A stretch of DNA of 64,000 nucleotides from a virus: positions 60,653-124,652 of IMG/VR virus record IMGVR_UViG_3300020170_000001, one strand, 5' to 3'. Shown here piece after piece: positions 42,920-59,313 of this stretch. Both the position numbers and the translations under genes were made by a program. Within the stretch, counting starts at the first letter, position 1. Every line of letters starts with the position of its first letter. The notes under the pieces were generated by a model. It had not been told where the DNA came from, did no database searches, and saw only the letters and a list, made by a program, of their open reading frames with translations.

Positions 42920-43761
42920 ACCGTTTCTCCGGCGGCGGCGGAACGAAGGCCGGTGGCGAGCTCGCCGAAGGCGTCGATGCTGGGCTGCTGGAATCGGCTG
43001 CAGGCGTGCCGGACGTCGCAGAAGTGGCAGGTGGCGGTGTTGTCCGTGCACTGGCGGGTGCCGGCCCAGACGTCCTGGGCGTATCGCTCGATGCGCGCCA
43101 GCAGATCCCAGCGAGCGGTGTCGGTGACTTCGAACGCGAGGATCTGTTCGGCACACATCGGCTGGATGAGGCCGACGAAGCGGGTCTTTGTTCCGCTCGC
43201 GGCCCACACAGCGATGTCGTAGAACGTGAGCTGAGCTATCACCTTTCGCCAGTATTGGTCGTCGGCGGTGCCCTTGAGGTCCCAGACGACCGGACCGCCG
43301 TTGTCAACGAGCAGGTCCATCTCGCCAGTGAGCAGGATGTCTCGGGGCAGGCCGTTACGGTCGGCGACGGACAGCGGCACCTTGAACCACTTGCCGTGCT
43401 CGTAGGGGTACGGGAGAACGTGAGCTTCGAGAATGGGTTCGAGGCGGTCGACCAACTCGACACAGAAGTCGCGGACCCGGTCTCGGTCGACGGCGTCGCG
43501 CCAGCGAACCATGTTTCCCTTTCCGCGCTCGGCGTTCTCCATTTCGTCCATTGCCACGGTGACGAGCCTTCGACTTCCCGCGCCGCGCATGATCGGGTTG
43601 TCCAACCAGTCGCGCATGACCCGGTCGACAACCATCCCGGCGAAGAAATTGCGAATATTGGTCACTTTGGACCGCTTACCGTCGCGCTGGAGGAAGCTCT
43701 TCTCCTTACATTCCTCCCAGGTCCTAATCGCAGACCAGCTGACCCGAATCGGCTTAGTCAT
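42916..43761 (-). CDS. RecB/Cas4-like PD-(D/E)xK exonuclease
   Basis: SWSAI..C, GEMDL, DLKG, QLTFY and CHFCDVRHAC. Confidence 0.88.
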   Translation of the reverse strand: MTKPIRVSWSAIRTWEECKEKSFLQRDGKRSKVTNIRNFFAGMVVDRVMRDWLDNPIMRGAGSRRLVTVAMDEMENAERGKGNMVRWRDAVDRDRVRDFCVELVDRLEPILEAHVLPYPYEHGKWFKVPLSVADRNGLPRDILLTGEMDLLVDNGGPVVWDLKGTADDQYWRKVIAQLTFYDIAVWAASGTKTRFVGLIQPMCAEQILAFEVTDTARWDLLARIERYAQDVWAGTRQCTDNTATCHFCDVRHACSRFQQPSIDAFGELATGLRSAAAGETV

Positions 43762-53670: not shown

Positions 53671-55305
53671 ATGCCGCGCCAGCGTAAGCCCAAGGTCATG
53701 ATCGATCTTCCGTCGCCCGCGCCGCACCCCCACCCAGACGGTTGCAGCTGTGTCCTGACTCAGCCCTACATCCGAGTCTCCAGGGTCGGCGATCGAAAAT
53801 TCTTGATCTCGCCCGAGATTCAGATGCGCGCGATGGACGAGTGGGCAGTCAGGAACAACAGACGGCTTTTGCCCCCAGTGTGCGACATTAACAAGAGCGG
53901 AAGAACGTTCCGCAAGCGCTCTGTCGATAAGATCATCGCCGCCATCAAAGATGGCCACTATCGTCACGTCGTCCTGTGGAAGTGGTCGCGCTGGGCGCGG
54001 AACCAGGCTGAGTCGGCCGTCTATTCGTCGTACGTACACAGCGCGGGTGGGCGGGTCGACTCTGCCACAGAAGACTTTGACTTGGACACAGCTATTGGAC
54101 GTCTCGGTCAGGGCATGACAGGTGTTATTGATCAATATCAGAGCGAGCTGATCTCGGAAAGTTGGAGCAGCGTTCACGCTTTAAGGCGAGAGGATGGACT
54201 TCCGCACGGCGGACGGGAAAGATTTGGTTACGCCTATGGCGAGACTGTAGTCAACGAAGAGCGCCGGAAGCGCTATACCAAAAATGACGAGGCTCCCATC
54301 CTCATCAAGGCGTACTGTGATTGGCTCGACGGAAAGTCGTTCATCAAGATTGCTCAAGAGCTAAATGCAGCGACATTCGTGACAATGCTCGGAGGACGCT
54401 GGACTCCGCAAGGTGTCGCTCGAATGATGGACACTGGTTTCGCCGCCGGCCTGATCCGTGAGCGGTCGGAGGGAATGAAAGAGAAAATAAGGGGCAAGCA
54501 AGTCGGCGCTAACTCGATCCTGTCGTACGACATCTGGCGTACAGGCAGCCATGAGGCAGTCATCGAAGCAAGCATCTGGGACACATACAAAGCAAGGCGA
54601 GTCGCTGCAAGTGGCCTACCGCCCAGGTCAAAAGCCCCGGTCCACGCTCTCTCAGCAATCATGTTCTGTACTGAGTGTCGTCGACGCTTGACTACGAAGT
54701 ACGCAGGCGCGGGACGAACGCACCAATGGCAATGCCCTTGGCAGAAGAGCTTCCATCCAGGGGTTGCCGTAACGGTCAACAACCGCCTCGCACTTGTTGC
54801 GGTTCGTGAGTGGGTACGGGCCGAGATCGGCGACGAGTTGCCCGTTGCGAAAGCGACCAATACTGCGCGTGAAGAACAAGCAAAGCGCCTCGCTGACGCC
54901 CAGACTCATCGTCGGGCGCTCAGTAACCGGATTGGCGAGCTAGAAGGGATGATCAATAATCTGACGATTCAGATTGCGACTAGCTCGCCAAGTGTCGCGG
55001 CGCGGTTCATCAGTTCAATCGAGGTGTGGGATTCGGAAATCGATCAGCTGCGCGCGGAACTCGCGCGCAGTGCTCCGAGGCCAAGGGCGCAAAAGGATCA
55101 AGAAGCCCTTCGAGCGCTCGATGCGGTATGGGGCGAACTGCCGCCTAGCGTTCTACACGAAGCACTTGCCAAAGTGATCTCGCGGGTTGAGGTATCGCCT
55201 CGGTCGGAAATTTCGACCCGCGCATCTGCAGCCGATCGAGTTTCCGCGATCGGCGTCTGGGAGGACCCGAGCACCGATGAGTGGCTGGCTTCAAGACCAG
55301 CGTAA
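53671..55305 (+). CDS. Large serine recombinase (integrase)
   Basis: YIRVS catalytic motif, SRWARN, recombinase domain, Zn ribbon CTEC and coiled coil. Confidence 0.92.
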   Translation: MPRQRKPKVMIDLPSPAPHPHPDGCSCVLTQPYIRVSRVGDRKFLISPEIQMRAMDEWAVRNNRRLLPPVCDINKSGRTFRKRSVDKIIAAIKDGHYRHVVLWKWSRWARNQAESAVYSSYVHSAGGRVDSATEDFDLDTAIGRLGQGMTGVIDQYQSELISESWSSVHALRREDGLPHGGRERFGYAYGETVVNEERRKRYTKNDEAPILIKAYCDWLDGKSFIKIAQELNAATFVTMLGGRWTPQGVARMMDTGFAAGLIRERSEGMKEKIRGKQVGANSILSYDIWRTGSHEAVIEASIWDTYKARRVAASGLPPRSKAPVHALSAIMFCTECRRRLTTKYAGAGRTHQWQCPWQKSFHPGVAVTVNNRLALVAVREWVRAEIGDELPVAKATNTAREEQAKRLADAQTHRRALSNRIGELEGMINNLTIQIATSSPSVAARFISSIEVWDSEIDQLRAELARSAPRPRAQKDQEALRALDAVWGELPPSVLHEALAKVISRVEVSPRSEISTRASAADRVSAIGVWEDPSTDEWLASRPA

Positions 55306-57088: not shown

Positions 57089-57318
57089 ACGCGCTGGAAC
57101 TTCCCTCTCGCGATGATCTGGTCGAGATCGTGGCAACCTGGATTCGCGCCGAGGAGGCGCGCCTGCGTCAACTGGACTCGGAACTGGAGACGCTGCTCGA
57201 AGCGGACCAGAGCCACATGCCGACCATGATCACCGTCGCGAAATGTCGGTCTCGGCTGCGGGCCATGATCCGGGTTTGGGAATTCGCGACCCGGGAGATC
57301 TGGAGGTCGTCGAGGTGA
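57085..57318 (+). CDS. Hypothetical coiled-coil protein
   Basis: GTGA overlaps on both sides. Confidence 0.55.
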   Translation: MNALELPSRDDLVEIVATWIRAEEARLRQLDSELETLLEADQSHMPTMITVAKCRSRLRAMIRVWEFATREIWRSSR

Positions 57319-57590
57319 GCCACCGTAACCTGATGTCGGGGGTCTACCGGCATTACAAGAACCACCTGTACCTGGTCCTGGGCTACGCGGGCGACGCCAG
57401 CATCGACGGCAGGGTCGTGGTGGTCTACGTCGGGCTGGACCTGGACGGGGCGAAGTCGTCATTCCGGATGCGGGTGCGCGAGGAGGAAGACTTCTTCGCC
57501 GTTGTCGATCCGGCGACCGGTTTGGGCGTCGAACCGGGCCAGGAAGGTGTTCCCCGGTTCGTGTACCTCGGGCCGGCGGTCAATCTTTGA
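57315..57590 (+). CDS. DUF1653-like protein
   Basis: GVYRHYKNHLYLVLGYA...VVVY...VR..F. Confidence 0.75.
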   Translation: MSHRNLMSGVYRHYKNHLYLVLGYAGDASIDGRVVVVYVGLDLDGAKSSFRMRVREEEDFFAVVDPATGLGVEPGQEGVPRFVYLGPAVNL

Positions 57591-57651
57591 TCCCGCGTCT
57601 CGCAAAGCGGGATGGCGTGCAAGTTGCATTGCGATACGTCCGAACCGAGTG

Positions 57652-57837
57652 ATGTGCAACTTGCAGAAACCGCTGAGGATAAGGATCTGCTGGCCCAACC
57701 CGGGCGAAGTGTGCCTGGAGGGTGGGTGTTGTCATTGCCAGGACCACCCAACTCGGTCTGTGGCGCTGATCTGGGCGTATGCGCGCAAGGTCGGCATGCT
57801 TAAGGCCTTGGCCCGCCGGGAGAACTGGCAGGGATGA
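57652..57837 (+). CDS. Small Cys-rich protein
   Basis: CLEGGCCHC; start uncertain. Confidence 0.4.
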   Translation: MCNLQKPLRIRICWPNPGEVCLEGGCCHCQDHPTRSVALIWAYARKVGMLKALARRENWQG

Positions 57838-57929
57838 TCTAGTGGTTCGGCCTTGTCCAGCGCGAAGGAGAAATCTCCTTGGCTTTCACTCATGTTGGGC
57901 AGTAGACAGAGCGTCGATGATCTAGCTAA

Positions 57930-58511
57930 TGTCGTAGGCAAGCAGTAAGAAGCGAGACCGTTCGAAGCATCTCCACCCGAGGTCCACGGAACGCCTTTTG
58001 CCTCGCTCGGCATTCCTCCGTGGCTTTCGCTCGCGTTGAGCAGCATTCGATCGAATCGTTCGCTGGGGACACGAATTGCCGGTCGAGGTTCCCCGGTTAC
58101 TGTCAGGTCGGTGAGAGCAGGTTCGCCCGTCCTCCGCCAGGGACGGCTGCTCTCATCGGCTGGCCAAAGGCGTTGTTCGGTGGGCTGTGCCTGGTCCGCC
58201 ACTCGCCTTGTCCCCGGAGGCTGGGTGGCCGCCGAAGGACGAGGCAACAGCCGGGCAGGGGATGCAGACCTCACCCGGCTGGCAACACCGCACTGGCGAC
58301 GGGCGGCACTGGCATCGGCCGCTGAAGGTCGCCTCCGCGAGTGGGGTAATCCGGTCAGGTCAAACCGCTACCTCCCGACCGCGATAGGCCCACACCGCCG
58401 AACGATGACGCACGGAAGGGACGGGTGGTCAGATGGGTGGGGACTAGGTGACGACCCTGCGCATGACGAGATCGGTTGGAAGCCGGGCTGGTGAGGTTCA
58501 GCCCGGCTTTC
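57930..58511 (+). ncRNA. Candidate large structured ncRNA
   Basis: Gene-free interval with many nested helices; G-U pairs favour the + strand; ends in a terminator-like hairpin. Confidence 0.55.
58479..58511 (+). terminator. Rho-independent terminator
   Basis: AAGCCGGGCTG-GTGAGGTT-CAGCCCGGCTT followed by T. Confidence 0.65.
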
Positions 58512-58600
58512 GTCTGTAGTGGATCCAGGCGGGTAGCCTCGGAATCCTCCTGCTGGGTGAAGGCCAGGGGCGATCCTCCTGGCCTTCCGCAGTCCCGGGG

Positions 58601-58786
58601 TCAGGGTCGCGGGATCTGCTCGAAGTCGACGCGCACGTTCGCGCTGGCGACGGCGAGGGCTTGATTGAGCGATGTGCAGGTGCGGGCGGTCGGGACGAGC
58701 CCGCGGAACCGCAGGCGAGGCACCACGGCCAGCGTCTTGCCCTTCTCGTCGACGAGCTTGACCTGGAAGCGATACCAACGAGGCAT
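58601..58786 (-). CDS. Hypothetical protein
   Basis: TAATG overlap with the upstream gene. Confidence 0.5.
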   Translation of the reverse strand: MPRWYRFQVKLVDEKGKTLAVVPRLRFRGLVPTARTCTSLNQALAVASANVRVDFEQIPRP

Positions 58787-59217
58787 TACTTACCCTTCTT
58801 CCTTTTCCGCCGTTTGGCCGGGCGAGGCGGGGTTGATTCGAGAGCCGCGCGTATCGCGGCGACATCCCCGCGGCGGCCGTGGACGTGGACCGACTCAACG
58901 TCGCAGCCGGGCTCCCAGCGAGGACCGACCAGGTGCCAGCGACAACCCGGCCGGGCGTCGGAGAGGGTGACCGGTTGCCGGCAACGGCACACAGCGCCGG
59001 CAAGAAGGCGCTGAGCGAGCGCGAACGCCGCATTGGCGGGCGAGGTGTGCCCGTCCACCATGATCCTGGCTCCGACGAACGTGGCGTGGGCGTACCAGTT
59101 CGCCTCGGCGACGGGCACGTCTTCGTTGAGGTGGCCGATTTTGAATTCGGACGATCCGCTGCGGCCAACAAGATCGGCACAGGCCTTGACGATATCGTCG
59201 TTCTCGTACTGAATCAC
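58786..59217 (-). CDS. Hypothetical protein
   Basis: 143 aa, basic C-terminal tail. Confidence 0.65.
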   Translation of the reverse strand: MIQYENDDIVKACADLVGRSGSSEFKIGHLNEDVPVAEANWYAHATFVGARIMVDGHTSPANAAFALAQRLLAGAVCRCRQPVTLSDARPGCRWHLVGPRWEPGCDVESVHVHGRRGDVAAIRAALESTPPRPAKRRKRKKGK

Positions 59218-59313
59218 ACTTCGCTCAACGATCCGACGAGCGTTTAGGGGCGCGGAATCGCATTCGAGTGAACCACCTGGTCAAGAACCTGATGCCTGGC
59301 CTACGGTGGATTC

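Follow-up and report, generated by a model that had tools for sequence, protein, structure and literature searches.

GOLLD and ROOL are large structured RNAs of bacteria and phages. Non-coding transcripts of about 500 bp are known, if poorly understood, from actinophages: one account (PMC5712189) describes highly expressed non-coding regions of this size in the cluster A mycobacteriophages L5, D29, and StarStuff. These regions are found at the far right end of the genome, with the early promoter Pleft directly upstream of them, and their expression has been demonstrated. The RNA-based extrachromosomal prophage origins described in a second source (PMC7157519) are transcribed regions of about 400 to 500 bp without an open reading frame (ORF), found in temperate actinophages, in non-RepA parABS phages, where they adjoin parABS in genomes that carry parABS instead of an integrase.

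The tract described here is a gene-free interval of 763 nt (57838 to 58600) in the window, by which we mean the whole stretch of DNA analysed, the final 64 kb of a virus record of 124,652 bp that is classed as linear, is estimated to be 93% complete, and has a GC content of about 64%. It lies 5.4 to 6.2 kb from the end of the record and 2.5 kb from the integrase gene. With the cluster A regions described in PMC5712189 it shares an actinophage context, a gene-free length of about 0.5 kb, and small indels among close relatives. Unlike those regions, it is set back from the end of the record, follows an operon, and is known here from sequence alone, and it has no sequence similarity to any of 50,697 phage records (blastn of 57700 to 58800). 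Unlike the phages with RNA-based origins (PMC7157519), the present record encodes a serine integrase and has neither a ParA nor a ParB match; the models PF02195 (ParB_N) and PF13614 (AAA_31) matched in 11 and 14 of 14 control genomes, respectively, and nowhere in the record, and the combination of a linked parABS with no integrase is not found in it.

The tract resembles GOLLD and ROOL in its size range and its phage or prophage association; unlike them, it has no match among the 4227 Rfam models, no family of homologs in the sets searched from which covariation could be read, and a modest excess of folding. It also resembles the regions between convergent operons that carry paired bidirectional intrinsic terminators, lying between the stop codons of converging gene blocks, with two GC-rich, perfect-stem hairpins (T1 and T2) adjoining the leftward stop. 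It differs from such regions in its length, far beyond what two terminators need, in the roughly 640 nt that separate the rightward stop from T1, and in that no canonical U-tract was called. We give an about even chance to the reading that the tract is the untranslated tail and termination zone of a rightward operon where it meets a short leftward operon. The tract fits a known kind of feature, and nothing as yet points to a new class of RNA.

A gene-free tract between converging gene blocks

The rightward operon runs from the serine integrase gene through a small Cys-rich gene, and the short leftward operon from 59879 down to 58601 (Table 1). The large serine recombinase indicates that the phage is probably temperate, and an actinobacterial host is suggested by one neighbouring gene, which has homologs in Micromonosporaceae, Pseudonocardiaceae, Streptomyces, and Frankia. 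The sole Rfam match in the window is a tRNA at 49486 to 49558.

The ORF at 57502 to 57837 matches phrog_10140 over residues 60 to 102 (E 8.8e-14) and has tblastn matches in 44 Gordonia phage records, from which we conclude that the small Cys-rich gene closes the rightward block at 57837. Its start would be ATG 57652 or GTG 57649, the former being probably the right one. In the Gordonia phage Ekhein, the homolog of this gene lies in a dense gene array, without a gap. One strain-level relative (contig X1) alone is missing a base at 57673, within the Cys-rich gene. The strain may have a genuine frameshift here, or the gap may come from an error of assembly or from a shifted alignment that another indel offsets.

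On the other side, the product of the 61-aa gene matches no Pfam or PHROG family, and neither does the 143-aa protein, for which a 25-sequence alignment shows invariant residues C77, C79, C92, C105, W41, W94, and W101. The homologs of the 143-aa protein come mostly from Micromonosporaceae prophage-like contexts and soil viral contigs, and one of them, 71% identical, is encoded on a 12.6-kb contig.

The ends of these two blocks, at 57837 and 58601, set the limits of the gene-free tract, which is wider than first reported (57930 to 58511). The preliminary description had placed it between converging gene blocks and had found its ORFs to lack coding bias, and both observations are borne out. In a GC frame plot, the third-position bias is strong in the genes on either side and absent from 57840 to 58600, and by a sliding frame-bias index the longest unbiased stretch of the whole record is 57699 to 58628 (930 nt), the next being 690 nt long. 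ARAGORN found no genes and Tandem Repeats Finder no arrays, and GC skew was uninformative.

ORFs of 101 to 180 aa do open within the tract, and in one frame positions 58281 to 58322 read as GNTALATGGTGIGR followed by a stop, which resembles Gly-rich nucleotide-binding motifs and draws short DNA matches from bacterial SDR-like and YjeF-like genes. We nevertheless regard one or more unrecognised or decayed protein genes as very improbable. The three longest ORFs have no Pfam match at E ≤ 0.1 and no PHROG match at E ≤ 0.01; the 152-aa plus-strand ORF and the 93-aa minus-strand ORF matched nothing, not even themselves, in an index of 5.8 billion proteins, and the 180-aa minus-strand ORF matched none of 1.84 billion representatives searched with HMMER. 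The motif matches come from two unrelated protein families and cover only about 14 residues, and the related strains have a 1-nt insertion after 58307, inside the motif, along with other 1-nt indels. Neither codon-position bias, nor homologs, nor a frame kept in the relatives speaks for a protein-coding tract.

Table 1. Features of the tract and of the genes around it, in window coordinates
Feature	Position	Strand	Details and basis
Large serine recombinase (serine integrase)	53671-55305		Rightward operon; Pfam Resolvase, Recombinase, Zn_ribbon_recom
DUF1653-family gene, rightward block	57243-57590	+	Pfam PF07866, E 1.3e-06; GC3 up to 0.94
Small Cys-rich gene, rightmost of rightward block	57652-57837	+	phrog_10140
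5′ part of the tract, unstructured	57838-58099	+	Lower GC (0.56); fold z -0.07
Helix	57991-57998 with 58167-58174	+	ACGCCTTT with AAAGGCGT; read from sequence
Hairpin H1	58107-58160	+	14-bp outer stem (2 G-U), 6-nt bulge, 7-bp inner stem, 6-nt loop
Helix, outer stem of H1	58107-58120 with 58147-58160	+	GTCGGTGAGAGCAG with CTGCTCTCATCGGC; read from sequence
Helix, inner stem of H1	58127-58133 with 58140-58146	+	CCGTCCT with GGGACGG; read from sequence
Multi-branch domain	58171-58407	+	MFE and centroid
Helix	58175-58183 with 58395-58403	+	GTTCGGTGG with CCGCCGAAC; read from sequence
Helix	58205-58213 with 58237-58245	+	GCCTTGTCC with GGACGAGGC; read from sequence
Helix	58248-58255 with 58274-58281	+	CAGCCGGG with CCCGGCTG; read from sequence
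Helix	58295-58300 with 58328-58333	+	GGCGAC with GTCGCC; read from sequence
T1, terminator-like	58480-58509	+	11-bp perfect arms, 8-nt spacer, then TTTCGTCTGT; inverted-repeat search, fold
T2, terminator-like	58559-58587	-	10-bp perfect arms; inverted-repeat search, fold
61-aa gene, final gene of leftward block	58601-58786	-	GC3 up to 0.92 in frame
143-aa gene	58786-59217	-	Conserved Cys and Trp residues; 70 homologs at E ≤ 0.001

Base pairing and terminator-like hairpins

The nested helices listed in the preliminary description are all present within 1 to 2 nt of the positions given there, and RNAfold recovers most of them. Hairpin H1 appears in both the MFE and the centroid structure, with an RNALfold z of -4.61 for 58106 to 58162. 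The multi-branch domain downstream is closed by a 13-bp long-range helix with 3 G-U pairs (58171 to 58183 with 58395 to 58407) and contains the hairpins 58205 to 58245 and 58248 to 58281 as well as further stems.

Compared with shuffled sequences, the excess of structure in the tract is moderate and partial. Folded as a whole, the reported region gives a z of -2.24 on the plus strand (4 of 100 shuffles as good) and -1.26 on the minus strand. For 58100 to 58410, a segment whose boundaries were picked after viewing the fold, z is -3.66 on the plus strand (0 of 100 shuffles as good) versus -1.25 on the minus strand, a difference explained by G-U pairing within H1 and within the 13-bp helix that closes the multi-branch domain. 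Positions 58411 to 58620 give a z of -3.18, with 0 of 200 shuffles as good, and the source of this signal is T1 and T2. Perfect stems of at least 8 bp number 10 in 57930 to 58511, against 3.8 ± 2.1 in shuffles, 2 of 200 of which reach that count. The earlier claim of some 550 highly base-paired nucleotides is not confirmed: the 5′ part folds like its shuffles, and in a fixed 150-nt tiling the plus-strand tiles of the tract reach a z of only -1.7 to -2.3. In 58100 to 58410, the structure does favour the plus strand. In place of a multi-domain RNA of about 550 nt, only about 310 nt and the terminal hairpins fold better than shuffles. The first observation is in this sense partly confirmed, and its interpretation partly supported.

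The tract core is no outlier against the genome background. In the 150-nt tiling of the window, whose z-scores are rough, with 20 shuffles per window, 19 of 848 strand-windows lie at z ≤ -3.5. RNALfold with SVM z-scores yields 93 non-overlapping loci at z ≤ -4, among which the T1/T2 stretch at 58417 to 58596 ranks second (z -6.01 on the minus strand, -5.1 on the plus strand); 58056 to 58406 has a z of -4.24, and several loci of about 290 nt or more elsewhere outscore the core. Without T1 and T2, the folding of the tract is at least equalled by that of many coding stretches elsewhere in the genome.

The loci with a stronger RNALfold z than the core include 49172 to 49255 (plus strand, -7.0) and 50155 to 50492 (minus strand, -5.2), both of which lie in tRNA-side non-coding tracts, and 43043 to 43258 (minus strand, -5.9). 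A further one, 53364 to 53435 (plus strand, -5.4), lies a short way ahead of the integrase gene and may be a terminator or an attP site.

The strongest structure signal of the tract is the T1/T2 pair, spanning 58480 to 58587. T1 corresponds to the terminator-like hairpin that had been noted at 58479 and closes the tract, and T2 starts 14 nt past the stop codon of the 61-aa gene in the leftward block. Both are GC-rich stem-loops directly downstream of an operon, as intrinsic terminators are, and neither was called by a terminator scan that requires 5 or more T within 8 bases, a U-rich tract being absent. Actinobacterial terminators often have no U-tracts. In L067, an unrelated viral contig, the T1 arms are found again as a hairpin preceded by an A-run. 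This would be expected of a generic terminator and is a further likeness to paired-terminator regions. As facing terminators, T1 and T2 would be the ordinary part of the tract.

If the tract is an operon tail, rightward transcripts would run past the last stop codon as an untranslated tail of about 640 to 680 nt, which would fold into stable plus-strand stem-loops, namely H1 and the multi-branch domain, and would end at T1, with leftward transcripts ending at T2. The stem-loops may act as barriers to 3′ exonucleases and read-through, insulating the converging operons. What the sequence shows is a gene-free tract with the hairpins in it, between converging blocks, that strain-level relatives have kept. 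Against this reading, a length of 763 nt is more than a simple terminator zone would suggest, the tract belongs to the longest unbiased stretch of the record, 58100 to 58410 has a plus-specific fold excess, 8-bp stems are enriched, T1 and T2 have no canonical U-tract, and the divergence of the tract in related strains is not above that of its flanks. If the tract is no more than an operon tail with terminators, it would be ordinary, marking where the operon of the integrase gives way to a small leftward cassette in the genome (about 125 kb) of an uncultured actinophage.

Two further elements are seen around T1. Just upstream of it, the plus strand has four G-runs (GGG, GGG, GGG, and GGGG) within 25 nt at 58418 to 58442, a possible G-quadruplex motif. 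Positions 58268 to 58283, on the 3′ side of the hairpin 58248 to 58281, are 81% complementary over 16 nt to 58482 to 58497, which comprise the 5′ arm and loop of T1, and this pairing would compete with the terminator.

Homolog searches and strain-level relatives

The preliminary description could not assign the putative RNA to a class, and the Rfam search agrees in that no known class fits. With Rfam 15, the tract has no match at the gathering score, and at E ≤ 10 the best scores in 57500 to 58900 are at most 22 bits, against gathering scores of 50 to 112.

Homolog searches of phage, virus, Micromonosporaceae, and metagenome sets found none beyond strains of about 94% identity. Scans of viral contigs with the protein of one flanking gene at a time, for three such genes, gave 0 relatives each. 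The 25 loci with the 143-aa gene, taken from the alignment of its product (16 viral and 9 genome loci), share no other neighbouring gene with the record and lack the tract, to which their blastn alignments extend over 46 nt at most (best E 0.005), and the 16 whole virus records with this gene contain 0 tract matches. Across 401 Micromonosporaceae genomes, only chance-level matches of 32 to 54 nt were found, in 9 of them, with a per-genome E of 2.6e-4 to 9e-4. A scan of the JGI metagenomes with the 143-aa protein yielded 0 relatives.

Several candidates were rejected. The pattern of the H1 arms has 22 matches in the JGI metagenomes, which show no further similarity at E ≤ 0.01 and have GC contents of 0.30 to 0.70. 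Pattern scans of IMG/VR returned 0, 0, and 1 matches, the single one being the L067 contig, which carries a generic terminator and is not a relative of the tract. We judge the matches that recur at 58273 to 58345 to be compositional; they come from DNA encoding Gly-rich motifs in SDR-like and YjeF-like genes, which are unrelated. Judging by the same coordinates, unrelated abundant soil contigs also match this segment.

Strains of about 94% identity occur in contigs of four soil-metagenome runs from 3 studies, and no RNA run is among the listed runs that contain the phage. The 6.4-kb contig of strain X1 spans 57200 to 59300 with 117 substitutions and 11 gaps, and strain X2 has a contig of 2.6 kb. 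The 12 indels listed for the strains, with 11 further rows left out, include 8 in 58053 to 58544, all but one of these 8 being single-nucleotide. Of the 13 substitutions in the DUF1653 gene of strain X1, 9 affect the third codon position, so the strain comparison is able to detect coding constraint. The tract pieces of strain X3 differ at 23 of 352 nt versus 34 of 354 in coding pieces, and those of strain X4 at 8 of 279 nt versus 20 of 482, where the omission of short contigs below 80% likeness biases the pieces toward conserved stretches; strain X1 diverges by about 5.5% over 57838 to 59300 versus 5.8% over 57200 to 57837. As judged from these alignments, the tract diverges no more than the flanking genes, which suggests that constraint may extend beyond the two hairpins.

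The length of the tract, its retention in the relatives, and the plus-strand-specific fold keep alive a second explanation, in which the tract encodes a lineage-specific, structured plus-strand non-coding RNA (ncRNA) of about 0.4 to 0.6 kb that ends at T1 and has a function of its own. We hold this to be possible, if rather unlikely. Such an RNA would either start at a promoter of its own, near 57.9 kb where GC is lower, or be processed out of the 3′ end of the operon. The longest gene-free stretch of the record, the fold excess of 58100 to 58410 on one strand, the 10 long stems, the terminator-like 3′ end, and the retention of the tract in relatives from 4 runs and 3 studies, with about as much divergence as in the coding flanks, are all consistent with it, and the highly transcribed, non-coding regions of about 500 bp in cluster A phages offer a precedent (PMC5712189). 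It is weakened by the lack of an Rfam match even at E ≤ 10 and by the lack of a homolog in the 50,697 phage records, the 25 loci, the 16 virus records, and the 401 Micromonosporaceae genomes, which leaves it with no evidence from covariation. Furthermore, the 5′ 262 nt are unstructured, and the core has to be seen against the 93 loci at z ≤ -4, several of about 290 nt or more being better.

The lower-GC 5′ part could, from its sequence, carry its own promoter. Read by eye, TAGACA (57903 to 57908) and TAATGT (57927 to 57932), with an 18-nt spacer, look promoter-like, but a promoter scan called none, this pair included. It is somewhat more doubtful still that the tract encodes a lineage-restricted RNA of about 0.4 to 0.6 kb, with its core at 58100 to 58410 and its end at T1, that functions in lysogeny or early infection of a large temperate soil actinophage. 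That RNA would be similar in kind to the abundant ncRNAs of the L5/D29 type and unrelated to them in sequence. A functional RNA, if real, would add an orphan large ncRNA to the actinophages. As there are at present no relatives for comparative work, the value of the locus rests on soil transcript data or a cultured relative.

Repeats, palindromes, and other motifs

The tract has a 28-nt motif in two copies, at 57875 to 57902 and 58016 to 58043, which are 141 nt apart and identical at 23 of 28 positions; the repeat scores 31, compared with 14.8 ± 2.0 in shuffles (0 of 300 as good), and these are its only two copies in the genome. The first 7 to 8 nt of each copy form the 3′ arm of a small hairpin, which is followed by GGCTTTC, and the copies may serve as binding sites or as weak terminators. 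At 58045 to 58056 they are followed by a perfect palindrome of 12 nt, ATTCGATCGAAT.

The significant direct repeats in a lower-GC stretch, the palindrome, and a conservation about equal to that of the coding flanks would suit an element acting at the DNA level, such as a replication origin, a group of protein-binding sites (the 28-nt repeats and palindromes), or an attachment or packaging site. The gene-free, transcribed, RNA-based prophage origins of actinophages are a precedent (PMC7157519). We consider such an element improbable, since those origins go with parABS replacing the integrase and this record has a serine integrase and neither ParB_N nor an AAA_31 ParA. The repeat also has two copies only and forms no tandem array, and an A inserted after 58053 disrupts the palindrome in the related strains of three runs. 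An attachment site is further disfavoured by the 2.5 kb between the tract and the integrase gene and by the lack of an exact attP-core-like host match in the 401 genomes.

Upstream of the tract, a perfect 11-nt inverted repeat at 57618 to 57665 has the arms TGCAAGTTGCA and TGCAACTTGCA with 26 nt between them; each arm is itself palindromic, and the 3′ arm spans codons 2 to 5 of the Cys-rich gene as read from ATG 57652. The pattern TGCAASTTGCA has no sites in the window besides these two arms. The repeat could form a hairpin that masks the start codon or represent a pair of operator sites.
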